Source: a virus (taxonomy: Duplodnaviria; Heunggongvirae; Uroviricota; Caudoviricetes). Taken from it: a stretch of 31,754 bases of DNA. The translations under genes were made by a program, and so were the position numbers. Below the pieces are notes generated by a model, which saw only the letters and a program-made list of their open reading frames with translations, did no database searches and was not told where the DNA came from. Each line of letters opens with the position of its first letter. Positions within the stretch are counted from its first letter, which is position 1. The stretch lies in IMG/VR virus record IMGVR_UViG_3300037313_000650; one strand, 5' to 3'. This document shows positions 13,836 through 28,223 of the stretch, piece after piece.

Positions 13836-14002
13836 TGAAAATTGGAAATAAAGTAATTTGCACTCTGCACCCTGATTGGGGTGCTGGAGTGCTTTCTTGT
13901 ATCTCTGAAGGTAAAGGATTCATCTATTGGGGTGAATTTGGAGATATGAGAGACAGAAAGTATGAATTTTGTGATTTATCATTAATAAAAATTGTTATAT
14001 GA
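13835..14002 (+). CDS. small hypothetical protein, SH3-like pattern (55 aa)
   Basis: Read manually: MKIGNKVICTLHPDWGAGVL...; TAATG and ATGA coupled. Confidence 0.7.
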   Translation: MKIGNKVICTLHPDWGAGVLSCISEGKGFIYWGEFGDMRDRKYEFCDLSLIKIVI

Positions 14003-14313
14003 CAATACATGATTGTAAAGAAGGTGTAGTGTACTATTACATACTACAAAGTAGTAGATGGTTAGGAAGGTTTGTTAAAATTGATAGAAGTCAATTATGG
14101 AATGAAGCTAATCTTGATATTAAGGGTGAGCATCTTTATATATATAATACGGGTTCTACAAATCTTTGTGGTACAAATAAAGTATTAGAAGTAAGAGAAG
14201 CTACACCTGAAGAGGTAGAACATTATGAACAATGTGTTGCAGCAAAGAAATATGTAGAATACAAACCTTCTATTAAATCACCTCAAATAATTAATAGTTA
14301 TGACATTTTCTGA
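13999..14313 (+). CDS. YEIF-tail protein 1 (RxAT/CIxAxK family)
   Basis: VREATPEEVEHYEQCVAAKK; ends PQIINSYDIF. Confidence 0.85.
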   Translation: MTIHDCKEGVVYYYILQSSRWLGRFVKIDRSQLWNEANLDIKGEHLYIYNTGSTNLCGTNKVLEVREATPEEVEHYEQCVAAKKYVEYKPSIKSPQIINSYDIF

Positions 14314-14596
14314 TTTAGTAATAGGAGGTGTATATTATGTTCATTGTCCTAAGTATGGGTTTAAATGGATAGTTGAACGTGGTGAAAATCTATTTAACCG
14401 ATATGGTATAGACTTAACAATAAGTAATGACCCTCGTCTTGAAAAAAGTATGGGTTCATTCGTTGAGGATTACGAATGGGAGATTCGTGAGGCTACAAAA
14501 GAAGAAAGAGAATGGTTATGGAAATCTATAAATGCAGATAATATAGTACCAAGAGAAAGTATTAATCCTATAAATAATAATTATGAAATATACTAA
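14300..14596 (+). CDS. YEIF-tail protein 2 (RxAT family)
   Basis: IREATKEEREWLWKSINA; ends PINNNYEIY. Confidence 0.85.
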   Translation: MTFSDLVIGGVYYVHCPKYGFKWIVERGENLFNRYGIDLTISNDPRLEKSMGSFVEDYEWEIREATKEEREWLWKSINADNIVPRESINPINNNYEIY

Positions 14597-14873
14597 TTAT
14601 TCTGATCTAATAGCAGGGCAATACTATGTATTCTATTTTAATAAGAGTGATAATACAGAGTTAAGAGTTATATTTAAATATGGTGGGCGTGAAAATGAGA
14701 AAAGGCACTATATTGATGCTGGTGATAAATACAAATTTGATACATGTTGTAGATGCAGTGGTTATTTTGTTCCTGCTTCTCCTGAAGATATTGAATGGTT
14801 AGATGATTGTATTGCAGCAGGTAAAACTGTTCCCAGACCTACAAAAGTTAATAATAATTATGAAATATTTTAA
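14583..14873 (+). CDS. YEIF-tail protein 3 (RxAT family)
   Basis: VPASPEDIEWLDDCIAAGK; ends PTKVNNNYEIF. Confidence 0.85.
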   Translation: MKYTNYSDLIAGQYYVFYFNKSDNTELRVIFKYGGRENEKRHYIDAGDKYKFDTCCRCSGYFVPASPEDIEWLDDCIAAGKTVPRPTKVNNNYEIF

Positions 14874-14882
14874 TTTTAATAT

Positions 14883-15179
14883 ATGAAATTATCAGAATGT
14901 ATTGAAGGGGTCAGTTATGTATTTGAAAGTGGTAATTGGCCTTATTTAGGTATATATAAAGGTATTAGAGATGATGAAATTATTACAAATTGCTGTTTAA
15001 ATCTTGAAACAGCAGAATTTTTCAAAGAAGAAACACGCTTAATGGATTTGGAATCTCTTGAAAATGTTAGAATACCAACTGACGAAGAGGTTCAATGGTT
15101 TAATGCATGTATTGCAGCTAATAAGGCGGTAAATAAAGCAGATATACCAAAAATCAATAACAACTACGAAATATTTTAA
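14883..15179 (+). CDS. YEIF-tail protein 4 (RxAT family)
   Basis: VRIPTDEEVQWFNACIAANK; ends PKINNNYEIF. Confidence 0.85.
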   Translation: MKLSECIEGVSYVFESGNWPYLGIYKGIRDDEIITNCCLNLETAEFFKEETRLMDLESLENVRIPTDEEVQWFNACIAANKAVNKADIPKINNNYEIF

Positions 15180-15237
15180 ATTTTACAAACTATTATAAAC
15201 TTTTTCTTTATTTTTAAACTTTAAAATTCAAACTAAA

Positions 15238-15702
15238 ATGAGTACAAAGAAAGCAACTGGAAAAGAGACATTAGCATTGACAACAACTACAGAAGTTCCT
15301 GAAGTGATTAAAGCATTGCAAGCACAAATTGATGAATTGAAAGATATTGAAACTTCACAGTGGAAAACAAGTGGTAATCTGGATGGTTTTGGTAGTATTA
15401 AGGAAGAAAAGAAGATTGAGAACTTGATTCGTGCTTATTCTTCTGTTAAAGGTAGAGCTAACGCTTATGAAGATGCAGCAGATGATTTAGGTATTACTAC
15501 CTATCCTCAGTTTAATATCAATGGTGGTACAGTAGAAGATTGGAAGCATGATATTCAATTGAGAATTGCTATTGTCAATCATAAAGAAAAGCTGGATAAA
15601 CTGAAAGATTTTAAAGCTAAAGCAGAACGTTTCCTTTCTGAGGAAGATCAGAAGAAGATGTTATTCAATGAAATGTCTGCATTTCTTGGATTAGGTAAAT
15701 AA
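15238..15702 (+). CDS. coiled-coil hypothetical protein
   Basis: 154 aa, heptad-rich, own terminator. Confidence 0.85.
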   Translation: MSTKKATGKETLALTTTTEVPEVIKALQAQIDELKDIETSQWKTSGNLDGFGSIKEEKKIENLIRAYSSVKGRANAYEDAADDLGITTYPQFNINGGTVEDWKHDIQLRIAIVNHKEKLDKLKDFKAKAERFLSEEDQKKMLFNEMSAFLGLGK

Positions 15703-15720
15703 GTCTCTCTTTTATTGCTT

Positions 15721-15752
15721 AAAGTCCCTGCCTTTTAGGTGGGGACTTTTTT
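15721..15752 (+). terminator. intrinsic terminator
   Basis: aaagtccctgcct...aggtggggacttt plus T-run. Confidence 0.8.
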
Positions 15753-15772
15753 AATTATTTAAATCTGTATAT

Positions 15773-16381
15773 ATGAAACAGATAACTCTTATACTAACTG
15801 TATTAACATTATTAGCCTGTAAAAAGGAAGATGTATCTCCAGAAACAAGTATCATTGAAGTGGAATCTAATTATAAAACAGTTATATATCTAAACTTTGA
15901 AGGAAAGAATATTGTAAATACTGATTGGAATAGTATATACAATATCCAGCAAGTAAATTGTGCTCCTTCCAGTTTTACTAATAATCAGAAACAACAGATA
16001 TATGACAGTTTGATTAAATATCTACAGACTTTCCACATTAGACTTACTGTAAGAAGAGATATTTACGAAAATGCTAATCAAAAAGCAGAAATAGTAGTTA
16101 CCCCTACAAGCTATTGGGCAAAAATAGATGGTATGGGTATCGCAGCAGTAAATTCTCTCACTTATAATATCCCTGCTTTTGTATTTAGCGATGTATCAAA
16201 CAACAATATCCGTAATACAGCCCTTGCAATTGCACATGAAGTAGGACATATTGTAGGACTTAATCATACGAAAACAAATAATTCATTCTATAATAGTTCT
16301 TTCATGGGATATCCCTATCTTAGCTCAAATCCCATATGGACAGAAGAAGACAAACAAATCATTAACCAAAATCTACAATAA
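15773..16381 (+). CDS. lipoprotein zinc metallopeptidase (metzincin/matrixin-like)
   Basis: Lipobox LLA-C then KKED; HEVGHIVGLNH (HExxHxxGxxH); downstream SFMGYP Met-turn. Confidence 0.85.
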   Translation: MKQITLILTVLTLLACKKEDVSPETSIIEVESNYKTVIYLNFEGKNIVNTDWNSIYNIQQVNCAPSSFTNNQKQQIYDSLIKYLQTFHIRLTVRRDIYENANQKAEIVVTPTSYWAKIDGMGIAAVNSLTYNIPAFVFSDVSNNNIRNTALAIAHEVGHIVGLNHTKTNNSFYNSSFMGYPYLSSNPIWTEEDKQIINQNLQ

Positions 16382-16629
16382 TGAATAAGAAATACAACAG
16401 TATTGAAGAAATTATAGGTATAGTCATTAAGTCTGGAAGAGATGATTATAAGGTTATTAAAAATGAAGACAATGAAGACGAATTTGGTCTTATTAATCTT
16501 AAAGTTGGTAATAAATATTTTAATGCATCATATAAATTACTCTATTTTAATAAGAAGTTAGAGCAAGGAATATGGAAAGTAGTAACTGAACCCAAACCCG
16601 AAATCAATAATACCTACGAAATATTCTAA
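16381..16629 (+). CDS. YEIF-tail protein 5 (G/D-x-WK[IV][VI] family)
   Basis: EQGIWKVV; ends PEINNTYEIF. Confidence 0.8.
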   Translation: MNKKYNSIEEIIGIVIKSGRDDYKVIKNEDNEDEFGLINLKVGNKYFNASYKLLYFNKKLEQGIWKVVTEPKPEINNTYEIF

Positions 16630-16811
16630 TGAAAAAAGTAATCAAGATAATGTCCCTACATGGAGAATACTATAGTGTTGAACCAATCATCTTCAGTAGT
16701 GCAAGTGTACACTTTGAAGATATAACTGGTATAAAACGTATAGTTGGTATAGCTGACATAATTGCTATTACATTAACAGAAAAAGATATTAACAATGAAA
16801 AAATTCATTAA
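16629..16811 (+). CDS. hypothetical protein
   Basis: 60 aa, TAATG coupled. Confidence 0.65.
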   Translation: MKKVIKIMSLHGEYYSVEPIIFSSASVHFEDITGIKRIVGIADIIAITLTEKDINNEKIH

Positions 16812-17007
16812 CAAGTTCTTCAAAGACTTTTGTTGGCATTCATGGGATTATTATAATCCATACAACAGAACCTGTACTTTATGTAATGAACATCAAGTAC
16901 AATTTCATAATACTTATGTTTCTAATGGTATGGTAATTCATGTAGACGAATGGGAAACAATGAATAAAACTACTAAAAATGAAAGATTTAAACCTGAATT
17001 GGATTAA
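16795..17007 (+). CDS. small Zn-finger-like protein
   Basis: CWHSW...RTCTLC pattern. Confidence 0.7.
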   Translation: MKKFINKFFKDFCWHSWDYYNPYNRTCTLCNEHQVQFHNTYVSNGMVIHVDEWETMNKTTKNERFKPELD

Positions 17008-17524
17008 ACTCGGTCATACTGGCTGTAATTTTGCATCCATATTTGCTAAAAATCCAGAATGCGTAGGTTGGAAAAGAATAATCAACCCTCTAGGTTTCTC
17101 AATACCAGAGGGTTGTTTCATTTTATCCCTTATTTTTCCAGATAGAGACATTAATTTTGTTCGTAATTGGGCATTAAACAATGGGTTCTTTGAAGAACAG
17201 GTAGCCGAAGGTCTTACTGGACTTAGATTAAAAGTTCCAGAAGGTATCTCTTGGGTACAGTATTTTGGTCCTGATAGTCATGTAAAAACCAGACAAGCAC
17301 CTATGCCTGAATTGTTAATGTGTGTAAAACTACCAGCTAAATACTACTGGAAGGTAGGATTTAAAGGTATATTACACCTTGCTCATGGAGCTATAGATTG
17401 TATTCGTAGTAAGGTGGTAGATAATGTTTGGGATACATCATTTAAACGTACAGCTAAAATATTAGGACATAAACCAACCATTACTGAGGCTGCAAAGACA
17501 ACTTTTAAAAATAAACAATTATGA
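16979..17524 (+). CDS. hypothetical protein
   Basis: 181 aa; GCNFA motif; no firm family. Confidence 0.8.
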   Translation: MKDLNLNWIKLGHTGCNFASIFAKNPECVGWKRIINPLGFSIPEGCFILSLIFPDRDINFVRNWALNNGFFEEQVAEGLTGLRLKVPEGISWVQYFGPDSHVKTRQAPMPELLMCVKLPAKYYWKVGFKGILHLAHGAIDCIRSKVVDNVWDTSFKRTAKILGHKPTITEAAKTTFKNKQL

Positions 17525-17769
17525 AATATTCTAAAGATAGACCTACTGAATTAGTAGGTAAGAAATTTATATATAGTGAAAATGAATATAGGATTATAGA
17601 TTATGATGATAAGAGTAACAAATTTCTTACAAAATATCTAAATGGTATACAAAAAGGTGAAATATTTGAAATGAGTGCTGATCATTATACATTTGGATAT
17701 TTCAATGATGATACTTGGAAAATAATTGAAGAAGAACCTCAAATAAATAATAACTATGATATATTTTGA
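17521..17769 (+). CDS. YEIF-tail protein 6 (WK[IV] family)
   Basis: DDTWKII; ends PQINNNYDIF. Confidence 0.8.
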   Translation: MKYSKDRPTELVGKKFIYSENEYRIIDYDDKSNKFLTKYLNGIQKGEIFEMSADHYTFGYFNDDTWKIIEEEPQINNNYDIF

Positions 17770-18130
17770 TATGATACACGGTAATTATTACTATTACCGC
17801 AATAATAAAAATGAAAATAGTTTAGGCTGGATAATAAAATTTAATGAAATTAAGACTTGTTCTGCTTATTCTGAGGGTCAATCTATTTTTAATTTAGCCT
17901 CTGTTAATCTGGATAATTATGGTAGCTTTTATACAAATGATGAAGGGGGAGATAGTAGATTTCATGATATAAAATCTGATGAATATTATGATCTAAGACC
18001 TGCTACTCCTGATGAAATTAGATATTTGGATGAATGCATAGAGAACGGAAAGAAGGTATTACCTATTCCAATCTTCACTTCTCCAGTTGAAGGTACAATT
18101 AAAATAATTAATGATTATGACATTTTTTGA
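17756..18130 (+). CDS. YEIF-tail protein 7 (RxAT family)
   Basis: LRPATPDEIRYLDECIENGK; ends KIINDYDIF. Confidence 0.85.
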   Translation: MIYFDMIHGNYYYYRNNKNENSLGWIIKFNEIKTCSAYSEGQSIFNLASVNLDNYGSFYTNDEGGDSRFHDIKSDEYYDLRPATPDEIRYLDECIENGKKVLPIPIFTSPVEGTIKIINDYDIF

Positions 18131-18464
18131 CATGGTTTATGGTAATTATTATTACTATAAGAATGATGAAAGTACAATAGCTTACATATTGAAATTCAAT
18201 GAGATACAACCATATAAAAACTACAATTCTTTATATGTTTTAGCTGCTGCTAGTATCAAAGGTTATGATACTTTTATGGATAAGGAAGAAGGTGGTAGTG
18301 ATAGATTTTTGGATATTGGACCGAAGAAAAACTATACATTAAGACCAGCCACTATAAAAGAAATAATGTGGCTTGATGAGTGTATAAAAGAACAAAAATG
18401 GATAAATTATAATCCATCCAAATTACCTGAAAATCAGATAAATAATAATTATGAAATCTACTAA
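18117..18464 (+). CDS. YEIF-tail protein 8 (RxAT family; close paralog of protein 7)
   Basis: MTFFDMVYGNYYYY vs MIYFDMIHGNYYYY; both have EGGxxRFxDI; ends QINNNYEIY. Confidence 0.85.
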   Translation: MTFFDMVYGNYYYYKNDESTIAYILKFNEIQPYKNYNSLYVLAAASIKGYDTFMDKEEGGSDRFLDIGPKKNYTLRPATIKEIMWLDECIKEQKWINYNPSKLPENQINNNYEIY

Positions 18465-18678
18465 ATACAAAGTTGGAGATTATGTAAGAGCTTTAACTAC
18501 TGGTTTTTATGATGATATTGTAGTACCAAATAAGATGTATAAGGTTGCAAGACTAGAGAATGATGGTAGCGGAGTGCATATAGAAATAGATAACTTTTTA
18601 ACTTTATATATGTATAATAGTGAAGTAGAATTAGCTAACAGTCCACAAGAAATAATTGATTCGTATGAAATATACTAA
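18451..18678 (+). CDS. YEIF-tail protein 9 (SH3/KOW-like)
   Basis: KYKVGDYVR...EVEL pattern; ends PQEIIDSYEIY. Confidence 0.8.
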   Translation: MKSTKYKVGDYVRALTTGFYDDIVVPNKMYKVARLENDGSGVHIEIDNFLTLYMYNSEVELANSPQEIIDSYEIY

Positions 18679-18895
18679 AGAAAATATAATCAGTTTAGTA
18701 GTTCAAGCTGGAGAAGGTAAAAATACTTCAAAGTATACAATAGTTGCTCCAATAGATAACACAGACTTTGCACTATGTGATTGTGATGGTGATACATACG
18801 GGAATTATCATTTTTCAGAATTTAAAAAATATATTGAAGAAGGTACGTGGAAAATTGTTGAGCCTGTAATCATTAATTCATACGAAATTTATTAA
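18665..18895 (+). CDS. YEIF-tail protein 10 (WK[IV] family)
   Basis: EEGTWKIV; ends PVIINSYEIY; start at overlapping ATG 18665. Confidence 0.8.
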   Translation: MKYTKENIISLVVQAGEGKNTSKYTIVAPIDNTDFALCDCDGDTYGNYHFSEFKKYIEEGTWKIVEPVIINSYEIY

Positions 18896-18897
18896 TC

Positions 18898-19134
18898 ATG
18901 AGTGAAGAACGCTACATTGGTTACGGACTTCTCCTTGATTTACCTTCAGGAAGAGTAGGATTAGAATTAACACTTAACCAGCTATCAGAACTGTATAAAG
19001 AAGCTGTAGAAAATAATGGTAAGGTGAAGGTTCTAGTCCTACCTGTTAAACCTGAAAATGTAACAGAGTGGAGAACTCATTCAGTTAAGATAGGAGAAAG
19101 CAAATATAAACAGAAACTTATAAAAGAGCATTAA
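18898..19134 (+). CDS. hypothetical protein
   Basis: 78-aa ORF. Confidence 0.75.
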   Translation: MSEERYIGYGLLLDLPSGRVGLELTLNQLSELYKEAVENNGKVKVLVLPVKPENVTEWRTHSVKIGESKYKQKLIKEH

Positions 19135-19135
19135 C

Positions 19136-19540
19136 ATGAAATCAAAGATTGAAATTATTGATGAGACTGTAGCTTATTATAGTGAAGACCCTAATAGAAG
19201 GGCAGTAGTAATGACTACATGTAAGTACCGCACTCCAGATGGTAGAATGTGTGCATTTGGTAGGTGTATGACTGAAGAAAGTTTAGAACTATATGGTGAT
19301 TTTCAAGGTGGTGTTATGAGACTTTTACTTAAATGTTATGACCGTCCACTTTCAGATGTGATTCTCCTAACAACAGTTATTAATACACCATTAAAAGAAG
19401 AATATCAAGGTCATGAGCTTACTTTTTGGACAAATATACAACGCTTACATGATGATTTTGATTACTGGAATTCAGATGGATTAACTGAAGAAGGAAAGGA
19501 ATACGTAGAAGTTATGAAAAATAAATATAAAGGGTTATAA
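19136..19540 (+). CDS. conserved phage protein (CKYRTPDGRMCAFG motif)
   Basis: CxYRxxdGxxCAxG motif recalled from many phage hypotheticals. Confidence 0.85.
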   Translation: MKSKIEIIDETVAYYSEDPNRRAVVMTTCKYRTPDGRMCAFGRCMTEESLELYGDFQGGVMRLLLKCYDRPLSDVILLTTVINTPLKEEYQGHELTFWTNIQRLHDDFDYWNSDGLTEEGKEYVEVMKNKYKGL

Positions 19541-19567
19541 AGAAACATTAACAAAAATAAATTCAAA

Positions 19568-21703
19568 ATGAAACAATTACAGCAAAAGATTCAAGACCAA
19601 CTAAATAAAATGACTTCAACTGGTAAGCTCTTTAGAAGTAGTATATCAGGTTCTGAAGTATGGAACATCTATATACAATCTTTTGAAAATGATCCGATCT
19701 TTCGTGACCCCAACAGTTCTACACATAATTGTAACCTGTGTAATAATTTCATCAGACGATATGGTAATATTGTAGCTGTATCTCCTGAAAATGAAATTAT
19801 GACTATTTGGGATGTAGAAATTGAAGGTGAGTTTGCACCAGTAGTTAAAGCTATCTCAACTAAATTGAAATCAGCTAAGATTCAGGATGTATTTTTTGAG
19901 ACTTATGCTGAACTTAATAGTTTGAACTATGAGAAGTGTAAAAAAACAAATACTGTATTCAGATTGGGTATAGATAAAAATCATAAACAGTATACCAAAG
20001 AAGAAGCTGATAAATTTGGTGTAGTAGAAGAGGGAGAAATCAGAACATTTCATCATCTTCATGTGGATATACCTGCTGCTTTTGTAGATATGAGTGGTGC
20101 TTCAGTAGAAGCTCTTATGGGTAGCTACAGAGATGCTAAGAATGTATTTCAAAGAGCAATGGAAGAGATAAGCATAGATACGTTACAGCTTGTTAGAGAT
20201 TTAATAAATCAAGGTAGTTTACTGGATGGTACAACACATCTATACAAAGTAGAGCAATTCATTCCATTTAAACAACAATATAGTGAGATTGGTAAAAAAG
20301 ATAGAGATAATTGGTGTTGGGCAACTTCTTATAAATTACCTATTGCTAAGTTTAAGAATGAATTGATTGGCGTATTATGTTCTGAACTTTCTGAAGGTAA
20401 GGAACTTAACGAAGCTTGTCAGGCATGGAATAAGCGTGTTGATCCTGCTAATTACATGAAAGCTACTGCACCCATCACCAAAAAGCAAATAGCAGAAGCT
20501 GAAAAATTCGTAGAAGAGAATGGATATGTAGAATCATTTGATAGAAGATTTGCTACAATTGATGATATTAAGGTGAGTGAAATACTTCATGCTAATGTTG
20601 GAGATGGTAAAATTAAGAAAGTCTCTATTTTTGATAACGTAAAGTCTACCTCTACCAGACATAAGAGAAGTGAATTTGATAAAGTGGAAGAAGTGAGTAT
20701 AGAAAAGTTCATGAAAGATATTCTTCCTTCATGTACTTCTATAGAGGCTTTCCTCACTTCTCAACATGAGGGTAATATGGTATCTCTCACTACAGCTAAC
20801 GACAAGAACAGCAAACCTATCTTTAAATGGGATAACAACTATTCTTGGACCTATAATGGTAACTTAGCTGGTAAATCACAGATTAAGCAAGCTGTAAAGG
20901 ATGCTGGTGGTAATGTGGAAGGTGTATTGAATTTTCGTTTAGCTTGGAATGAATCTGGTGAAGATAATTCTGATTTGGACTTGTGGGCTATCGAACCTAA
21001 TGGTGTTAGAATTGGTTTCAGCACACAATACAGAAAAGGTAGACCGGGATATGATCGTAGTTCTATGTCTGGTCAATTAGATGTAGATATTATCAGCCCT
21101 TCTGGTAAATTAGCTGTTGAGAATATTACATGGACTGACTTTAACAAGATGAAAGATGGAGTATATATAGTATATGTAAATCCATATCATGCATCAAATT
21201 CAAAAGGTTTTAAGTTAGAGATTGAATTTGATGGTGAAACATATGTTTATAGTTATGATCGCCCTGTACCTGTAGTATCAAATGTACATATAGCTGAAGT
21301 CACTCTAAAAGATAGGAAGTTTAGTATCAGACACTTACTTCCTGTAGTTGAAGGTACTGGTGCTCAGAAAGAAATCTATGGCTTGGAATCTAACCAATTC
21401 CATAAGGTGAATCTAGTATGTTTGTCTCCTAATCATTGGGAAGGTAACAATGTAGGAAATAAGCATTATTTCTTCATGCTGGAAGGTGCTAAATGTCCTA
21501 TTTCAATTCGTTCTTTCCACAATGAGAACCTGATTCCTGAACTTGCAGCACATAGAAAAGTGTTAGAAGTTCTAGGAGCTACTCATACTATTAAACCTAA
21601 TGGTAAGCAATTATCAGGTTTAGGTTTTAACAGTACTGTAAAGGATGAATTAGTAGTTAGATTAAAAGGTAGTCATTCAAGAGTAATAAAAATCAAATTC
21701 TAA
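19568..21703 (+). CDS. large conserved phage protein with C-terminal YfaP/DUF2135-like domain
   Basis: 711 aa; N-terminal HNCNLCNNFIRRYG (CxxC); C-terminal DLDLWAIEPNG and GQLDVD...AVENITW match the DUF2135-type pattern. Confidence 0.8.
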   Translation: MKQLQQKIQDQLNKMTSTGKLFRSSISGSEVWNIYIQSFENDPIFRDPNSSTHNCNLCNNFIRRYGNIVAVSPENEIMTIWDVEIEGEFAPVVKAISTKLKSAKIQDVFFETYAELNSLNYEKCKKTNTVFRLGIDKNHKQYTKEEADKFGVVEEGEIRTFHHLHVDIPAAFVDMSGASVEALMGSYRDAKNVFQRAMEEISIDTLQLVRDLINQGSLLDGTTHLYKVEQFIPFKQQYSEIGKKDRDNWCWATSYKLPIAKFKNELIGVLCSELSEGKELNEACQAWNKRVDPANYMKATAPITKKQIAEAEKFVEENGYVESFDRRFATIDDIKVSEILHANVGDGKIKKVSIFDNVKSTSTRHKRSEFDKVEEVSIEKFMKDILPSCTSIEAFLTSQHEGNMVSLTTANDKNSKPIFKWDNNYSWTYNGNLAGKSQIKQAVKDAGGNVEGVLNFRLAWNESGEDNSDLDLWAIEPNGVRIGFSTQYRKGRPGYDRSSMSGQLDVDIISPSGKLAVENITWTDFNKMKDGVYIVYVNPYHASNSKGFKLEIEFDGETYVYSYDRPVPVVSNVHIAEVTLKDRKFSIRHLLPVVEGTGAQKEIYGLESNQFHKVNLVCLSPNHWEGNNVGNKHYFFMLEGAKCPISIRSFHNENLIPELAAHRKVLEVLGATHTIKPNGKQLSGLGFNSTVKDELVVRLKGSHSRVIKIKF

Positions 21704-21918
21704 TGGGAAAAATTGTTTCAATTACAGAAAAAACACCAGTATCAGCAACATTACCTGATGGTAACTATGTAGGTATATGGGGTGGTAACATCATTGAACT
21801 AAAATATAATAATAAAACTTACGAATTAGAAACAGAAGTAGGTGTTAGGGGTATAGGTTATCATGTTGTAGTGATTGTTAAAGATGGTGAAGCCACATTT
21901 CAAGAACTAAAAAATTAA
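21703..21918 (+). CDS. hypothetical protein
   Basis: 71 aa, TAATG coupled. Confidence 0.75.
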   Translation: MGKIVSITEKTPVSATLPDGNYVGIWGGNIIELKYNNKTYELETEVGVRGIGYHVVVIVKDGEATFQELKN

Positions 21919-21943
21919 ATTCTAATTTTAAAATCAAAACAAA

Positions 21944-22330
21944 ATGGACAATTTCAAAAAAGCCAGCCAATTAAAGCTAAGATTTGTAACAAACAAAGGT
22001 GTATTATCAGTTGAACAATTGTGGGACTTAACCCCAACTCAATTAGCTACATTAGTTCGTTCTATTAAGGAAGAATTAAAAAGTGCTAATGTGGATGATG
22101 AACTATCCTTCCTGAGCGATAGTATCCCAACAAAAGGAGATATTGAAAATCAACTCCGTTTTGAGATTGCAAAAGAAGTATACCTAGCTAAGAAAGCTGA
22201 AGCTGAAGAATTGAGAGATGCTAAAGCTAAGAAAGAACACAATCAGAAGATTCTTGCTCTGATTCAAGAGAAGAAGGAAGGTGAACTGAAGAATAAAAGT
22301 ATTGAAGAATTAGAAGCACTTCTTAAATAA
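21944..22330 (+). CDS. conserved phage coiled-coil protein (KLRF..KG.LSVEQLWDL)
   Basis: 128 aa; family recalled as a neighbour of the 711-aa protein type. Confidence 0.85.
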   Translation: MDNFKKASQLKLRFVTNKGVLSVEQLWDLTPTQLATLVRSIKEELKSANVDDELSFLSDSIPTKGDIENQLRFEIAKEVYLAKKAEAEELRDAKAKKEHNQKILALIQEKKEGELKNKSIEELEALLK

Positions 22331-22339
22331 TTGATTATC

Positions 22340-22370
22340 AGGGTGGTGTAGAAATACATCACCCTTTTTT
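22340..22370 (+). terminator. intrinsic terminator
   Basis: agggtggtgta-GAAA-tacatcaccct-ttttt. Confidence 0.9.
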
Positions 22371-22382
22371 AAACTTTTTACA

Positions 22383-22661
22383 ATGGAAACAGCAATAGAA
22401 ATAGCAATTAAATATGCTGAAGATAATATAAAAGCTTGTAAAGATGGTACTATGATGAGTTTTGGTGAAGCTATTTGGGGTGAAAATGCTTGGATAGAAA
22501 TAAGAAGATACCTAACAGGTTTATTACCTACAGAAAGATTTAAACTTGAAAAAGCCTTCGAAGCTGGAAGTCACTGGAATGAAAAGTATAATAAATATAC
22601 TGATGATTCTATAAAAGTTCCTGATTTTAAAAAATATTACGAAGAAACTTATGCAAAATAA
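22383..22661 (+). CDS. hypothetical protein
   Basis: 92-aa ORF. Confidence 0.8.
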   Translation: METAIEIAIKYAEDNIKACKDGTMMSFGEAIWGENAWIEIRRYLTGLLPTERFKLEKAFEAGSHWNEKYNKYTDDSIKVPDFKKYYEETYAK

Positions 22662-23106
22662 ATCTATACTCCTTATAGGTCAGGCTTTACCTAGAGTGAA
22701 ACAACACGTACCATATGATAGTACTATGTTATATGAATGGTTGGAAGAATGCGGTGTATCTATGGAACAGGCACAAGATATATTTGATTTTGATGCTGTT
22801 TATGATAAATTCCCCGGCTATAATGTAAAAGGTGGTCACGCTACACCAACCTATGAACAGATGTTAGAATATTATAATAGATCATTGAGGGAGAAGATCA
22901 CTAAATATAACAAAATAATCATATTAGGAAATGTTGCAAAAATGTTTTTACTTTCTACCAATTCTCTATTGGGAAAGCACATACTGTATTTAATTCACCC
23001 TTCCAGACTAAATTTCAATCTGTATCAGAGGAACAAAGAAACAATTATTTCTAATCTGAAACAGTTTATTCATGAAGACATTTACCATCCACATCACCTT
23101 CAGTAA
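22651..23106 (+). CDS. uracil-DNA glycosylase-like superfamily protein
   Basis: ILLIGQAL (motif A-like), IIILGNVA, LIHPS (motif B) as in family 4/5-type UDG folds. Confidence 0.7.
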   Translation: MQNKSILLIGQALPRVKQHVPYDSTMLYEWLEECGVSMEQAQDIFDFDAVYDKFPGYNVKGGHATPTYEQMLEYYNRSLREKITKYNKIIILGNVAKMFLLSTNSLLGKHILYLIHPSRLNFNLYQRNKETIISNLKQFIHEDIYHPHHLQ

Positions 23107-23242
23107 GGGGAATCAGTTAATCTTCTACAATGTACAAGCTTCTACAGAAGAAGAAGCTATTCAATTAGTAGTGAAACTAATTAAAGGAAAACAAATCTAC
23201 AAAATTTCTGCTGAAGAGGATAAAAAAGTATTGGAAGTATAA
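23072..23242 (+). CDS. small hypothetical protein (56 aa)
   Basis: Read manually: MKTFTIHITF...VQASTEEEAIQLV. Confidence 0.65.
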   Translation: MKTFTIHITFSKGNQLIFYNVQASTEEEAIQLVVKLIKGKQIYKISAEEDKKVLEV

Positions 23243-23288
23243 AAACTATTTATTAACATTGCAAAACTAAAACCGCTATTTAGAAACT

Positions 23289-23465
23289 ATGAGTAAGTAT
23301 TCCGAACCACAAGTTGTAAGAGAACTAGTACAAAAACAAGACATTGAGATTAAAGGTAAGATGATTATTATTGATAACAACAAAGGAGATATTGGTATCA
23401 ACTCTAAAGGAAAGATTGACTTCCTGACAAGATACTGCGGTTACTTTATTACTATAGCTAAGTAA
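23289..23465 (+). CDS. small hypothetical protein (58 aa)
   Basis: Read manually: MSKYSEPQVVREL...GKIDFLTRYCGYFITIAK. Confidence 0.7.
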   Translation: MSKYSEPQVVRELVQKQDIEIKGKMIIIDNNKGDIGINSKGKIDFLTRYCGYFITIAK

Positions 23466-23511
23466 CCTCCATTGGTGCTTACGGGGATTTGTATTTACTT
23501 ATCCCCTTTTA

Positions 23512-23543
23512 TTTGGCAATTTCAAGAAAATATCCTATATTTA
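23512..23543 (+). promoter_or_regulatory. Bacteroidota-type promoter for tmRNA
   Basis: TTTG-N20-TATATTTA, ending 11 nt before the tmRNA 5' end. Confidence 0.7.
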
Positions 23544-23554
23544 AATCTTAATAT

Positions 23555-24052
23555 GGGGGTGTAAGGAATTGATTCACAGTAATAGGTAAATACACAGGTA
23601 AGAGTATCTAGTCCTCGCAATGCTAGGTAATAATAAATGCAGAAACTGAGCTTTCTGATATGACTTTCGATAGCTTAATGGCTTTCGTAGGTGCTGAAAA
23701 AGTAGCTGCTTAGTAGCCCTACTATTCAGTGGAGATGTAGCTAAGGCTTTTCCTCCCTTGGGGTTTGATTTAACCTTGCAACAGAATAAATCAGTAGAGG
23801 GACTCCCTTAACAGTTAAGGCTGACCTTAAGCACTCTACTTAAAATACTATTGTATATAGGGGGTGAAGCAATAGAAACCAGAGGGGAAACTGTAAAGTC
23901 ACCGGGATTGTTGTAAGTATATGTCCAAATGATAACAGAACTTTCAAAACTACGGTGCAGGTATTAAATATTAGTTTAATATCAGTACTAAACCTGTAAG
24001 TGCGTATTTATTGTATTCTGGAGAAGACAGGGCTTCGATGCCCTCACCTCCA
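23555..24052 (+). ncRNA. ssrA: tmRNA
   Basis: Acceptor stem GGGGGTG/CACCTCC-A with G3:U Ala determinant; GGAATTGA after the 5' stem; helix 2 (taaatac/gtattta, acaggt/acctgt); ACTAAACCTGTA; T-arm agggc-ttcgat-gccct; resume context AATAAAT-GCA; tag ORF 23639-23713 AETELSDMTFDSLMAFVGAEKVAA*. Confidence 0.95.
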
Positions 24053-24080
24053 CAATTTTTTCCTACACATCCACAAATAT

Positions 24081-24111
24081 TTTACTATATTTAGTATAGT
24101 TTGTATATTTG
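24081..24111 (+). promoter_or_regulatory. Bacteroidota-type promoter, probably leaderless endonuclease transcript
   Basis: TTTA-N19-TATATTTG ending 4 nt before the ATG at 24116. Confidence 0.55.
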
Positions 24112-24115
24112 TGGT

Positions 24116-24667
24116 ATGAAGAAATATAAATATAAGAGAAAGTTGGTAGAAATAGAATGTGATTATTGTGGGAACATTCATACCAAACCTGAGAGTGAAT
24201 ATAATAGGAATAAAATAAAAGGGAGAAAAAATTACTGTAGCAGAAGTTGCTGCGGTAAGGTAACAATTAAACAAAATATTCCTAAAGAGAGTATAGTATG
24301 GGAACATCTTAAAGGTATTAATAGAAGAGATAAATATACAGGATTTAGAGAGCATATAAGAAGAATTCATAATAGACATAAGAAAATTGAATTGACCTTA
24401 GATGATTTACTGGAGCAATGGAATAAGCAAAATGGTAAATGTATTTATAGTGGTGTAACTTTAACAAATCCTATTAGTACAAGAAATTATTATAATAATC
24501 CTATATGTACAGCTTCTTTAGACAGAGTTGATAGTTCAAAAGGTTATACTAAAGATAATATTCAATTCATAAGTTATTCTATGAATTATATGAAAAATAA
24601 CATGACTCATGAACAAACTATTGACTTGTGTAAAATAATTTGTAACTTTTGGGATAAAAAAGATTAA
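24116..24667 (+). CDS. freestanding HNH-superfamily (beta-beta-alpha-metal) homing endonuclease
   Basis: N-terminal CDYC...YCSRSC Zn finger; C-terminal QNGKCIYSG...SLDRVDSSKGYTKDNIQFISYSMNYMKN, the DRxD HNH variant. Confidence 0.8.
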   Translation: MKKYKYKRKLVEIECDYCGNIHTKPESEYNRNKIKGRKNYCSRSCCGKVTIKQNIPKESIVWEHLKGINRRDKYTGFREHIRRIHNRHKKIELTLDDLLEQWNKQNGKCIYSGVTLTNPISTRNYYNNPICTASLDRVDSSKGYTKDNIQFISYSMNYMKNNMTHEQTIDLCKIICNFWDKKD

Positions 24668-24675
24668 ATGATATA

Positions 24676-24830
24676 AAAATAGGAAGTGTGCCGTAGGTAT
24701 TATTAACGTTTATCGGGAAGCCTACAAGTGCTTAATATCCTTCCTATTTTAAATTATTAGGTATAGATGGTGTATGGAGTTTGATTAACCCACTATGGAA
24801 TGATTAGTAAACAGCCTCACACTATACCTA
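24676..24830. other. two adjacent long imperfect hairpins in an ORF-free gap
   Basis: aaaataggaag/cttcctatttt with inner gtaggt/gcctac; taggtatag/ctataccta with inner gtgt/acac and gttt/aaac. Confidence 0.55.
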
Positions 24831-24902
24831 AAGCTTATCAGATTTTGCCATTTGATAGCTAACCAGCCGCTTTAGTGCTGAAAATTCACATGAGAGAAAG
24901 TT

Positions 24903-24934
24903 AACCCCTTGATAGGAATATCAGGGGGTTTTTT
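24903..24934 (+). terminator. intrinsic terminator
   Basis: aaccccttgata-GGAA-tatcagggggtt plus T-run. Confidence 0.85.
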
Positions 24935-24972
24935 AATTTTGTTAAACATTTTCTAATTATAAATCAAACAAA

Positions 24973-25326
24973 ATGGCAAGAAAGAACAAAACTATCAAAT
25001 TCTACTCAGATGAAGAAAAAGATATCATCAAAAAAGCAGTAGAAAAGAACAACTATCCAAGTGCTCTTGCTGGAGCTAGGGATTTAGCCCCTAAACTAAA
25101 CAGGCCCGAAGGGGGATTAGCTTTAGTAGTAGCAAGAATGATGAAGAAAATAGGTCATCCTACAGCAAAAAATAAATCCAGAGCAATGAGTAAAAAAGCT
25201 ATTGAACCGGATAGTAGAAAATTGAATTCTAAAAAGGCTAACTTACCTAAAAAGAATCAATTATCTTTCCCACTGAATAGTGTAGATTTCGAAATTAAAA
25301 ACGGTAGAATTTGGATTAGTTTTTAG
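24973..25326 (+). CDS. basic hypothetical protein, possible HTH DNA-binding
   Basis: Lys/Arg-rich; YSDEEKDIIKK...ARDLAPKLNR Myb/HTH-like pattern; own terminator. Confidence 0.8.
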   Translation: MARKNKTIKFYSDEEKDIIKKAVEKNNYPSALAGARDLAPKLNRPEGGLALVVARMMKKIGHPTAKNKSRAMSKKAIEPDSRKLNSKKANLPKKNQLSFPLNSVDFEIKNGRIWISF

Positions 25327-25336
25327 TCCATTTTAG

Positions 25337-25365
25337 AGAAGTCCCTCAATTGGGACTTCTTTTTT
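25337..25365 (+). terminator. intrinsic terminator
   Basis: agaagtccc-tcaatt-gggacttct-ttttt. Confidence 0.85.
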
Positions 25366-25390
25366 AATTCCATAACTAAATAAAAAAAAC

Positions 25391-25804
25391 ATGAAAACAA
25401 TTGAAACTATCCTTAAGGATTACAAGAGTGAAACAATAGATGGTAGGGATTTAAGTAGACTTGTACAATTTTTAACTGAAGAACAAGCTTCTAGTATTGG
25501 TATTAACTTTAAGGATGAATATAAAGGTAAGCATGAACCTATACCATTTACAAAGGAAAATGTATTGAAACAATTAGAAAGTGATGTAGAATTTGGATTT
25601 GAAAAAGCTCTGAATCAAAGAGGTATATCTGCTGGATTGATGTATGATGTAGTAAAAATGTGGAATTGGATATTAGAAGAAGGGTTAGAAGACTTTGATG
25701 ATTATGCTTATTATGGATTACCCTTATTTAAAGCCACTGCTGTAAAATACAACTTTAACAATCCTATAGGAGAAGATTCAGGAAGTGAATCTGAATATAG
25801 CTGA
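25391..25804 (+). CDS. conserved phage protein (FGFEKALNQRGISA motif)
   Basis: 137 aa; motif recalled from uncharacterised phage proteins. Confidence 0.85.
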   Translation: MKTIETILKDYKSETIDGRDLSRLVQFLTEEQASSIGINFKDEYKGKHEPIPFTKENVLKQLESDVEFGFEKALNQRGISAGLMYDVVKMWNWILEEGLEDFDDYAYYGLPLFKATAVKYNFNNPIGEDSGSESEYS

Positions 25805-25854
25805 ATATAACAAGAATTATTTTCTTATATTTGTCATACTTAAAAACAATTCTT

Positions 25855-26058
25855 ATGCTTAGATGGACTATTATTTTTCTTGTACTTGCAATCATTTCTG
25901 CAATTTTTGCTTGGGGCAATATAGCTTCTACCTCTGTAGAAGATATTGCTAAAATAACATTCTACGCCTCTTTTATTTTATTTGTTCTATCTCTTTTTGC
26001 TGGATGTAGGAGATTTTCTGATGAAACCGATAAACTTGATGAAGATTGGGGGTTTTAA
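25855..26058 (+). CDS. DUF1328 / UPF0391 family small membrane protein
   Basis: MLRWTIIFLVLAIISAIF.WG.IA.....IAKITF...FILFVLSL matches the family; TATATTTG promoter element at 25826-25833. Confidence 0.85.
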   Translation: MLRWTIIFLVLAIISAIFAWGNIASTSVEDIAKITFYASFILFVLSLFAGCRRFSDETDKLDEDWGF

Positions 26059-26076
26059 CCACTTAATATTTAAACT

Positions 26077-26133
26077 ATGAGAAAATATTGGATTCCCGGC
26101 GATCCTTCAGAGGACGAAGGAAGTGAAGACTAA
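26077..26133 (+). CDS. candidate micropeptide MRKYWIPGDPSEDEGSED
   Basis: 18 codons after a tttaaactATG start region typical of this window. Confidence 0.4.
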   Translation: MRKYWIPGDPSEDEGSED

Positions 26134-26160
26134 CTATTTACCAAACAAAAACTAACAATT

Positions 26161-26340
26161 ATGTACATTATCTTTCAAGACAAACGAACACTTGAGTGTT
26201 TTTCTGTATCTCAAAATGCATTAGACTTTCCTGAGTTCTTAGAATTTGAACAAAGGGGATTAGTAAAGAGAGTATTTGTAGGTAAAAAACGAGATTGTGA
26301 TAAGTATCTTGAAAATGAAGTTGAGGTAGAAATGATTTAA
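26161..26340 (+). CDS. small hypothetical protein (59 aa)
   Basis: Read manually: MYIIFQDKRTLECF...; terminator follows at ~26350-26374. Confidence 0.7.
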   Translation: MYIIFQDKRTLECFSVSQNALDFPEFLEFEQRGLVKRVFVGKKRDCDKYLENEVEVEMI

Positions 26341-26385
26341 TTAATATACAAAGGGGGCTAACAACCCCCTTTTAAATTTATTATT

Positions 26386-26775
26386 ATGGTATCAAAAATA
26401 ACAGCAGGTATTAAAGTTTCAGTTGAAACTTTCTACCAACTAGATTATTCAAATCCAATGCAGTCTGAATTTATGTTTGCTTACCGTATTACTATTGAAA
26501 ATCTAACTGGACATGATATGAAATTATTAAGCAGACATTGGTTTATCTTTGATTCTGAAATTGGTAATAAAAGAGAAGTAAAAGGTGAAGGTGTAGTTGG
26601 TATGACTCCTGTTATTGAATCTGGAAAGGATTTTCAGTATGTATCAGGAGTAAATTTACATTCTGAAATGGGTACAATGAATGGGTGTTACACTTTTCAA
26701 AATCAATCTACGAAGGATTTAGTAGAGGTTAAAGTACCAAAGTTCGAACTTATTGTTCCATTTAAACATAATTAA
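26386..26775 (+). CDS. apaG: ApaG (DUF525) protein
   Basis: ITAGIKVSV...FAYRITIEN...LLSRHWFI...VKGEGVVG..PVI..G..FQYVSG..L.SE.GTM.G.Y: full ApaG signature. Confidence 0.93.
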   Translation: MVSKITAGIKVSVETFYQLDYSNPMQSEFMFAYRITIENLTGHDMKLLSRHWFIFDSEIGNKREVKGEGVVGMTPVIESGKDFQYVSGVNLHSEMGTMNGCYTFQNQSTKDLVEVKVPKFELIVPFKHN

Positions 26776-26777
26776 TT

Positions 26778-27068
26778 ATGAAAGAATTAATATTACAAAA
26801 TATAAAAACTTCAGGTAAGAATACTGCTGTATGGTGTGAGAACCTTGAAGAGTGGGAGCAAGTACTAAAAATAATAGGAAATCCACAGGAACTTACTAAA
26901 GCTAATTATAATAGTTATAGAAATGAATATCCATCCATAAATGTTAATGATGGACGTTATGGTCATAGAGGATGGTATATAAATAATTCTTATGATGTAT
27001 ATCTAGCAAGTGAATTTATCAAGGCAAATACAGGACCACAAATTATTAATTCATATGAAATTTATTGA
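26778..27068 (+). CDS. YEIF-tail protein 11
   Basis: TAVWCENLEEWEQVL body, unrelated to the RxAT family; ends PQIINSYEIY. Confidence 0.8.
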   Translation: MKELILQNIKTSGKNTAVWCENLEEWEQVLKIIGNPQELTKANYNSYRNEYPSINVNDGRYGHRGWYINNSYDVYLASEFIKANTGPQIINSYEIY

Positions 27069-27070
27069 TT

Positions 27071-27310
27071 ATGCTTCCAAAATACGGATATATTAAAGAT
27101 ATGACACCAGAGCAAACTAAACAACTAATAGAGCTACTGGAAAAAGAAGGATATAAAAAGAATTCAGATAATTATGATTGGGGAGAAGGTAAGTTAGCTT
27201 GGTATAATGATAAATTTTATAGTCATATTCTAGACGATTCTAAACAACCATTATACAAATTTGAAGATGTAATCCAAAGTGAAATTATTAATAATTACGA
27301 AATATATTAA
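27071..27310 (+). CDS. YEIF-tail protein 12
   Basis: LIELLEKEGY body; ends EIINNYEIY. Confidence 0.8.
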   Translation: MLPKYGYIKDMTPEQTKQLIELLEKEGYKKNSDNYDWGEGKLAWYNDKFYSHILDDSKQPLYKFEDVIQSEIINNYEIY

Positions 27311-27314
27311 CTTT

Positions 27315-28223
27315 ATGATTATCGGAAATAGAAAACATGCAAAACCTTTTTTGAAATGGGCAGGGGGTAAGACACAGTTGATTCCAGCGATTAAGTCTAC
27401 AATACCAAATGAGCTACACAATATCCCATTTACTTATGTAGAACCGTTTATAGGAAGTGGTGCAGTATTTTTTTGGTTTCTAAGACACTTTCCAAACATA
27501 CAGAAGGCAGTTATTAATGATGTAAACAAAGATTTAATTGATACTTACCTGACTATAAAACTTTATCCCAATGATTTAGTGAAAGAATTAAAAGAATTGG
27601 AAAAGGAATACCAAAGCCTTGATTCACAAGAAAAGCAAAAGGAGTTATTTTTAAATAAAAGAGCACTTTTTAACTCGAGAAAAAACAGCATAGTTATACA
27701 AAGCTCTTTAATGATTTTTCTAAATAGAACTTGCTTCAATGGGCTTTATAGGGTAAATAGTAAAAACCAATTTAATGTTCCATTTGGCAGGTATACGAAT
27801 CCTACTATTTGTGATACGGAAAATATTTATAATGTTAGTGTAGCTTTGGAGAACGTGACAATTCTCAACCAAGACTATTCTTCTACATTACCAGAAATTG
27901 AAGGTGATACTTTCTTTTATTTCGACCCTCCTTATAAACCTCTTAGTCAAACAGCATCATTTAACTCATATGCAAAGGATATTTTTGGTGATAGTGAGCA
28001 GCAACGCCTAAAAGTTTTCTGTGATGAGCTTGATAGAAGAGGAATCAACTGGCTTCTTAGTAACTCAGACCCTAAGAATACAGACCCTAGCAATCACTTC
28101 TTTGATGACTTATATAACCATTATTACATTAATAGGGTACGGGCTAAAAGAACAATAAACTCGGATGCATCTAAAAGAGGAGATATATTTGAATTATTAA
28201 TCCACAATTATAAAATATATTAA
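27315..28223 (+). CDS. dam: Dam-family (D12 class) DNA N6-adenine methyltransferase
   Basis: KPFLKWAGGK, YVEPFIGSGAV, NDVN, NRTCFNGLYRVN..FNVPFG.Y, catalytic YFDPPY; start moved to 27315. Confidence 0.92.
   Translation: MIIGNRKHAKPFLKWAGGKTQLIPAIKSTIPNELHNIPFTYVEPFIGSGAVFFWFLRHFPNIQKAVINDVNKDLIDTYLTIKLYPNDLVKELKELEKEYQSLDSQEKQKELFLNKRALFNSRKNSIVIQSSLMIFLNRTCFNGLYRVNSKNQFNVPFGRYTNPTICDTENIYNVSVALENVTILNQDYSSTLPEIEGDTFFYFDPPYKPLSQTASFNSYAKDIFGDSEQQRLKVFCDELDRRGINWLLSNSDPKNTDPSNHFFDDLYNHYYINRVRAKRTINSDASKRGDIFELLIHNYKIY

Follow-up and report, generated by a model that had tools for sequence, protein, structure and literature searches.

The window analyzed here is a stretch of 31,754 nucleotides from a Caudoviricetes phage (IMG/VR record IMGVR_UViG_3300037313_000650), equivalent to the minus strand at positions 1113–32866 of the 164,315-bp virus record; coordinates are given within the window. 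The phage genome (G000) is a single contig with direct terminal repeats, rated 100% complete, and is found in soil and rhizosphere metagenomes, with no RNA run among the public runs listed for it. Twelve small open reading frames (ORFs; t01–t12) in the window end in variants of one octapeptide, [IV][IN][ND][NSTD]Y[ED]I[FY], and a conserved gene, here called A1, lies among them (Table 1). The tagged genes sit on the replication side of the genome, its non-structural part, and the module adjoins genes for a PolB-like exonuclease/polymerase and an SF2 helicase. An earlier note on this DNA had proposed that the shared ending is a portable peptide under selection and probably recognized by a common partner; the twelve ORFs that it listed are all present, with exactly the endings it gave. 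A1 was absent from that account, and it is to this conserved neighbor that the tag proves to be tied. Tag and A1 constitute a two-part module, in which a conserved A1 is accompanied by a changing set of tail-tagged ORFans.

Table 1. Tailed ORFs, the partner gene A1 and neighboring genes of the window.
Feature	Position	Strand	Length (aa)	Body or assignment	Tail and remarks
t01	13999..14313	+	104	Family A	IINSYDIF
t02	14300..14596	+	98	Weakly family A	INNNYEIY; ATG within t01 tail codons
t03	14583..14873	+	96	Family A	VNNNYEIF
t04	14883..15179	+	98	Family A	INNNYEIF
A1	15238..15702	+	154	Conserved gene accompanying the tag	Candidate receptor or hub
Putative metallopeptidase	15773..16381		202	Reprolysin/M12-type hits	
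t05	16381..16629	+	82	Family B	INNTYEIF
t06	17521..17769	+	82	Weakly family B	INNNYDIF
t07	17756..18130	+	124	Family A	IINDYDIF
t08	18111..18464	+	117	Family A	INNNYEIY
t09	18451..18678	+	75	Singleton	IIDSYEIY
t10	18665..18895	+	76 (from ATG 18665)	Family B	IINSYEIY; TTG start at 18656 possible
phrog_1735 protein	19568..21703		711	phrog_1735	
ApaG/DUF525-domain protein	26386..26775			PF04379 (1.7e-29)	
t11	26778..27068	+	96	Singleton	IINSYEIY
t12	27071..27310	+	79 (from ATG 27071)	Singleton	IINNYEIY; TTG start at 27065 possible
Dam methyltransferase	27315..28223	+		D12 class, PF02086 (2e-64)	Directly after t12

The strict motif occurs 12 times in the six-frame translation of G000. Every copy lies in the window, on one strand and directly before the stop of an ORF of 75–124 aa, and there are no internal copies. 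Against these 12 terminal hits in the full genome, 50 shuffles yielded none, and the number of ORF ends with the motif expected from amino-acid composition is 6e-6. A proline stands 1–4 residues before the tail in 10 of the 12, as had been reported. A possible addition to the set is the Dam methyltransferase, which ends in ...ELLIHNYKIY and so matches the core N-Y-x-I-Y found in the tails. The native end of DpnM (2dpm) is ...IIVTNYE, and ...NY[EK] belongs natively to the end of the DpnM-type fold, so that only the final IY is extra in the phage enzyme. This thirteenth tail-like end is ambiguous, and may be a further client or a coincidence.

The bodies that carry the tail are diverse. Grouping by BLASTP after removal of the last 10 aa recovers two families (A, with t02 as a weak link, and B, with t06 as a weak link) and three singletons, so the earlier count of at least four body families holds at the sequence level. 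No family above noise was found for the 12 bodies in Pfam or PHROGs, and a family A profile searched against 5.8 billion proteins returned only the six paralogues of G000 itself. In a wider set of 88 tailed ORFs from 17 phage loci, BLAST separates 59 body clusters. An AlphaFold2 (AF2) model of family A places a beta-rich body with one helix at residues 1–81, at modest confidence (mean predicted local distance difference test, pLDDT, 63), while linker and tail (residues 92–104) are modeled as coil at pLDDT <50. The prediction is thus of an unstructured tail that follows a linker rich in Pro, Glu and Gln; Pro is enriched 2.5-fold in the linker, and Glu and Gln are enriched as well. Across the phages compared, tailed proteins are acidic, with a median isoelectric point of 5.3 versus 6.3 for their untailed neighbors.

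Several features indicate that selection acts on the peptide and not on the underlying DNA. As the earlier note had observed, codons vary synonymously among the twelve tails: Tyr is encoded by TAT in eight and by TAC in four, Ser by AGT, TCA or TCG, Ile by ATA, ATT or ATC, and the stop is TAA or TGA. Pairwise synonymous divergence (pS) is 0.83 over the tail and 0.98 over its last four codons, and nonsynonymous divergence (pN) is 0.15 and 0.09, which gives pN/pS of 0.18 for the whole tail and 0.09 for the last four codons; the eight codons that precede the tail have pN/pS of ~1.1. Information at codon positions 1, 2 and 3 is 1.49, 1.22 and 0.81 bits and is at background level right after the stop, and the DNA 3' of the stop shows no conservation across the 12 genes. 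These data support purifying selection on the amino acids of the tail, with synonymous sites near saturation. Low pN/pS, the unrelated bodies and conservation across ~22 phage lineages bear out the notion of a portable module at the peptide level.

The association between tail and A1 was recovered from both directions. Degenerate DNA patterns of the tail, scanned over IMG/VR, led to loci (L042/L097, L119, L132) with clusters of small ORFs ending in ...NNYEIF, ...NDYSIF, ...NNFEIY and ...NSYSLF, and there every tailed cluster adjoins an A1 homologue. An A1 alignment was also searched in viral contigs, metagenome contigs and species genomes, together with the loci of ten distant representatives. 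All 24 A1 loci with at least one flanking ORF (22 lineages) have 1–13 tailed small ORFs, usually placed immediately upstream of A1 and in some cases downstream of it. Of the small ORFs at A1 loci, 25% match a loose tail regex, compared with 0.55% in 137 unrelated, AT-rich viral loci, not one of which has two or more; the rarity of such ORF ends elsewhere, on which the earlier proposal depended, is therefore borne out. Set beside the tail-bearing comparison records (G001–G005), A1 is itself unusual in its conservation: no other G000 protein has BLAST homologues in each of the four further records that were fetched whole (47–57% identity for A1), and the structural genes common to G000 and the distant G003 and G004 are 21–34% identical. 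A1 is also the only family present in 15 of 15 independent loci, the runner-up being present in 4.

The converse pattern was seen as well. Relatives without A1 were found through an alignment of a conserved 750-aa protein; in a search of ten related records none had A1 (0/10), and the identical search detected A1 in G001, G002 and G004 at 1e-67 to 1e-72. Three of the A1-negative genomes are complete or nearly so, namely G014 (155 kb, terminal repeats, with a head protein 80% identical to that of G000), G009 (111 kb, terminal repeats) and G007 (113 kb, 97% complete). Their 277, 112 and 235 small ORFs include no tail-like end, by comparison with 15 in G000 (the 12 strict copies, the Dam methyltransferase and 2 chance matches) and 9 in G002. 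G014 and G000 share 54 ORFs (median identity 43%), and neither A1 nor the tailed bodies are among them; a check for homologues that keep the body and lose the tail, which would have told against the proposal of the earlier note, found none. Co-occurrence and co-absence together imply that a phage has either the whole module or none of it. In the ~30-kb accessory region of the window, G014 (L270–L277) shares almost nothing with G000, a near-total mismatch which indicates that the whole region is replaceable.

Across phages the tail has a common core, N-[YF]-x-[IL]-[FY]-COOH, preceded by hydrophobic residues at −8/−7; the logo of the 88 tails has N at −5, Y or F at −4, a variable −3, I at −2 and F, Y or L at −1. 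Within this core each phage has its own version: Y-[ED]-I-[FY] in the window, [YF]-S-I-F in L145, F-P-I-Y in L172/L174, L176 and L186, [YF]-P-I-F in L290 and L291, N-F-D-[IVT]-L in L183/L184 (11–13 genes) and Y-E-[LV]-[IF] in L293. When proteins with unrelated bodies are paired, the identity of their last five residues averages 0.69 for pairs from one phage versus 0.41 for pairs from different phages, a result that 0 of 500 label permutations reach. Homologous bodies, moreover, change dialect from phage to phage. One family (with a GNFNWDET-EG-FWH core) ends in ...INEYSIF, ...INNLFPIY and ...TFNFDIL in three phages, and a second ends in ...DNYEIY in L149 and ...NNFPI[YH] in L172. Since homologous bodies carry the local dialect, the tail follows the genome and not the body, which calls for a constraint at the level of the genome, such as a shared reader. 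One of the loci named above, L186 (RXKI01000143.1), is a contig of 26% GC with A1 and six ...LFPIY ORFs that is binned in a metagenome-assembled genome labeled Neisseriaceae; it is most likely a mis-binned phage contig and hence gives no clue to the host.

A1 is a member of a large family, with 1108 clusters (50% identity) at E<=1e-3 and 495 at E<=1e-10. Its AF2 model (pLDDT 73, with residues 40–115 above 85) has a confident alpha/beta core, two small hairpins and long helices. One conserved hairpin (residues ~44–57) carries YKTSG...GFG-[DN]-I-K-x-E, and the segment between YKTSG and [DN]-I-K-x-E is hypervariable in length and sequence across the family. Residues 69–151 match phrog_2574 (E=1.5e-8), a PHROG without annotation. 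An AKAP7/2H-like identity was considered and rejected, the Pfam hit falling below threshold (21.4 vs 24.4 bits). Comparison with the AFDB clusters recovers two unnamed or auto-named proteins of ~150 aa, the ESM Atlas two viral hypothetical clusters, and VIA-align wide generic helical hairpins (Z<=7); neither a sequence profile against the PDB nor a Foldseek search of the model against the PDB (E<=0.001) returned anything. A further member, P0013 (240 aa, from the representative library), is an A1 homologue whose reading frame continues that of a tailed ORF upstream (...VIVNNYQI-K-TIT-M), probably through stop loss, a frameshift or an assembly error and not as a designed fusion.

The hairpin loop of A1 tends to co-vary with the tail dialect, although this pattern is suggestive at most. 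On the A1 tree, the dialect with Pro at −3 has at least three separate origins, and in every case it goes with Asn at A1 position 53 (5/5 vs 3/17 in the remaining dialects; p=0.002 by Fisher's test, uncorrected). Loops of the form GFG[DSN] go with canonical and non-canonical tails in a ratio of 7:1, versus 0:7 for GFxxN (p=0.0014, post hoc and phylogenetically uncorrected). A search for A1 columns specific to the FPIY dialect returned only position 53, in two or three lineages and not exclusively.

On this evidence we lean, by a modest degree, toward the view that the tail is a peptide for docking and has a functional tie to A1, which would most likely be its direct receptor. The octapeptide would be a C-terminal short linear motif for docking, borne on a flexible linker rich in Pro, Glu and Gln, and its clients would be many different small, mostly acidic and very fast-evolving accessory proteins. 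The free C-terminal strand would attach to A1, plausibly next to the conserved beta-hairpin, and A1 would bring the changing set of clients together at a single site or commit them to a single fate. We infer all three elements of this scheme—the binding of tail by A1, the binding site and the handling of clients. Of the core idea in the earlier note, portability and selection on the peptide stand, and the common reader proposed there gains support of an indirect kind.

Several considerations weigh against this interpretation. That A1 physically contacts the tail is itself something we infer; A1 could share a pathway with the tail and yet make no contact with it, and A1 and the tails could both be parts of one mobile accessory cassette. 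No recognizable peptide-binding fold or family was detected for A1 in Pfam, PDB profile, Foldseek, AFDB, VIA-align or ESM Atlas searches. A complex prediction that paired the A1 alignment with the family A alignment, run without controls, scored 0.00 and speaks neither for nor against binding. Adjacency to A1 is not strict, given that t11 and t12 lie 11 kb from it and that three tailed genes in G001 lie 40 kb away. The covariation of A1 with dialect is post hoc, with no correction either for the number of columns or for phylogeny, and non-Pro dialects can also go with Asn53. Finally, the dialects are polyphyletic on the A1 tree, which would fit equally well a reader that is encoded by the host and differs when the phage moves to another host.

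Such a host reader is the alternative that survives best, and we regard it as unlikely but worth keeping in view. The tail would be read by a host protein such as the beta sliding clamp, in which case it would resemble a clamp-binding peptide and bring clients to DNA under replication, or by a protease or unfoldase for which it would serve as a timed degron; A1 would then be an adaptor or a co-traveler, and the dialects would follow the host. The consensus of the clamp-binding pentapeptide is QL[SD]LF. The order of residues in the tail—a polar amide, a hydrophobic or aromatic residue, any residue, an aliphatic residue and an aromatic residue with a free carboxylate—resembles it and may serve as a lead, but the tail has Asn and not Gln at −5 and an aromatic residue and not Leu at −4, and thus departs from the clamp consensus. 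A phage-encoded clamp was rejected as the reader, none being present in G000 (PF02768 absent), so that a clamp in this role would need to be that of the host. The position of the module beside the exonuclease/polymerase and helicase genes, the tail-like end of the Dam methyltransferase and the polyphyly of the dialects all favor a host reader, as does the precedent of T4, in which three unrelated proteins carry interchangeable C-terminal clamp epitopes (PMC2988020). Against it, tails have never been seen without A1, and the close relative that lacks A1 has none; the degron variant is further weakened in that the tails are without LAA-like ends.

It is also conceivable, though improbable, that there is no dedicated reader and that the tails pair as beta-strands with each other or with their own bodies, to form hetero-oligomers. 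The alternating pattern I-x-N-x-Y-x-I-F is beta-strand-like, and the many copies per genome with a uniform dialect would suit such assembly. However, eight residues of strand, set on bodies that are unrelated, would hardly suffice to specify assembly; the family A model shows the tail as unstructured, and the link to A1 would go unexplained.

A role of the nascent tail at the ribosome, for example in slowing termination and so coupling the translation of the next gene, seems very improbable. The genes are densely packed, and in 5 of the 12 the ATG of the next gene lies within the TAT-GAx codons of the tail (starts at 14300, 14583, 17756, 18451 and 18665), each giving an overlap of 14 nt. A sixth overlap, of 20 nt, arises where t08 begins within the end of t07, upstream of the TAT-GAx codons. 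Yet four tails use TAC, which allows no ATG, and several tails are followed by gaps or non-overlapping starts; translational coupling therefore cannot explain the conservation. The final gene of a cluster has a tail as well, and since the ribosome is nearly invariant, dialects such as FPIY and NFDxL and the link to A1 would be left without explanation.

We give similarly little credence to the idea that the shared ending is a relic of one ancestral family whose C-terminus evolves most slowly, with no shared partner. The proteins are of similar size (70–125 aa), some bodies are paralogous, and remote homology between body families is possible. Set against this are the 59 body clusters, the strong purifying selection on the tail beside neutral adjacent codons, and the switching of dialect by homologous bodies according to genome, which needs a constraint at the genome level. 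A conserved DNA element (a recombination junction, a promoter or terminator, or a translation-initiation region) has next to nothing in its favor beyond the AT-richness of the sequence, its recurrence at gene boundaries and its occasional inclusion of the next ATG, since conservation has codon periodicity, pS is 0.83–0.98, nothing is conserved past the stop, the other frames and the opposite strand are free of the motif, and the peptide is conserved between phages whose DNA does not align.

The tail matches none of the sequence definitions tested, namely the clamp motif, ssrA, the tip of the single-stranded DNA-binding protein (SSB) and the end of a LamG domain. The nearest published principle is that of the T4 clamp epitopes: gp43, gp55 and gp33 carry interchangeable hydrophobic–acidic C-terminal epitopes for the gp45 clamp, on variable and probably unstructured linkers (PMC2988020). 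Both systems place a short C-terminal peptide on a variable, unstructured linker in unrelated phage proteins, and if A1 is the reader, both have one phage-encoded hub that reads the peptide. They differ in that T4 has three clients of known function and a ring clamp, whereas here there are 3–13 ORFan clients per genome, a candidate hub of 150 aa without a recognizable fold, no encoded clamp and a different motif. For a tag on variable accessory proteins, the nearest example is the N-terminal capsid targeting sequence of the T4 internal proteins IPI–III and Alt, which directs late-expressed proteins to the scaffold core and is cleaved by the prohead protease (PMC3012670, PMC7697877). It too is a short portable peptide on diverse, fast-evolving accessory proteins from variable clusters; unlike it, the present peptide is at the extreme C-terminus in 12 of 12, which puts it outside the definition of a capsid targeting sequence, and its genes are on the replication side.

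More distant parallels can be drawn with bacterial and other phage systems. The C-terminal tip of SSB (...DDDIPF) and the acidic tails of T7 gp2.5 and gp4 use a free C-terminal aromatic residue and carboxylate as a docking handle. In those cases one tail serves many partners, while here many proteins share one tail; the tail also has no acidic run of the SSB kind, with E/D only at −3 in this window and mostly I/N/N at −7 to −5. The ssrA tag is a C-terminal peptide with N-x-x-Y, added co-translationally and ending in LAA, whose clients are handed on by SspB, an adaptor of ~160 aa. The combination of an N-x-x-Y peptide and a small adaptor offers a model for A1 as an adaptor, but the tails end in [IL]-[FYL] and not in ALAA, unlike the ssrA degron, and no similarity between A1 and SspB was found in Pfam, PDB profile or Foldseek searches. 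In the Dot/Icm type IV system, hundreds of unrelated effectors share a short, loose, compositional C-terminal signal read by a coupling/adaptor complex. The sharing of a short C-terminal signal by unrelated proteins is common to both; Dot/Icm, however, is a bacterial secretion system, and nothing here points to secretion.

To return to A1 as the probable receptor of the tail, a broader version can be put forward tentatively, with the chances somewhat against it: A1 may be the founder of a widespread family of phage hubs (>1000 sequence clusters) that read genome-specific addresses on fast-replaced small effectors, the hairpin loop setting the dialect and effectors joining by gain of a tail of 5–8 residues. 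If so, the accessory and counter-defense proteins of phages would share a general plug-in mechanism. Most small early or accessory proteins of phages are ORFans that offer no handle, and a shared tag with a partner gene supplies one; the prediction is that one hub serves dozens of unrelated proteins per clade, either as the route by which they act or as the means of their delivery. Deposited phages, queried with the region, with three A1 sequences and with the head protein, gave no match, and so no cultured model exists. The hub idea can nevertheless be tested with peptides and a protein of 150 residues, no cultured host being needed, and the pattern of presence and absence and the dialects provide natural specificity controls. 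Should A1 prove to be the reader, the pairs would also make a compact, orthogonal set of peptides and receptors. A literature search found no account of the motif or of A1, and nothing relevant on crAss-like small-protein tags or phage short linear motifs; the statement in the earlier note that no described motif matches accords with this result for the motif.

Other candidate readers and a look-alike ending were considered and set aside. The ApaG/DUF525-domain protein, which is unusual for a phage and is encoded directly upstream of t11 and t12, was rejected as the reader: PF04379 is present in G000 and absent from G001–G005, including G002, which is 90% complete. A ThiF/E1-like adenylation enzyme was likewise rejected, as PF00899 is found only in G004 and is absent from G000–G003 and G005; the G004 protein (L146:9575-10294; PF00899, 1.4e-15) lies in a replication module. 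At ~85 IMG/VR loci (L001–L118, mean GC 46%), marine proteins of 200–1083 aa with variable N-terminal parts (68 of them, of 206–1083 aa, in the analyzed set) share an end of ~35 residues, ...IxEIIIYNSDQSANRPAIEANINNQYDIY, with one weak hit to Laminin_G_3 (PF13385). Its residues probably form the final strand and helix of a LamG/ConA-like domain. The tails of the small ORFs are not such a domain end, as what these ORFs have in common is limited to the last 8 residues and they are without the domain.

Three further genes deserve mention. The 711-aa product in Table 1 has no Pfam hit and matches phrog_1735 over its full length (2e-217), and the ORF table of G000 includes an ORF of 4737 aa. The putative metallopeptidase gene, situated between A1 and t05, encodes a lipoprotein-like N-terminus and a HExxGH motif, and its product gives hits to zinc metallopeptidases of the reprolysin/M12 type.

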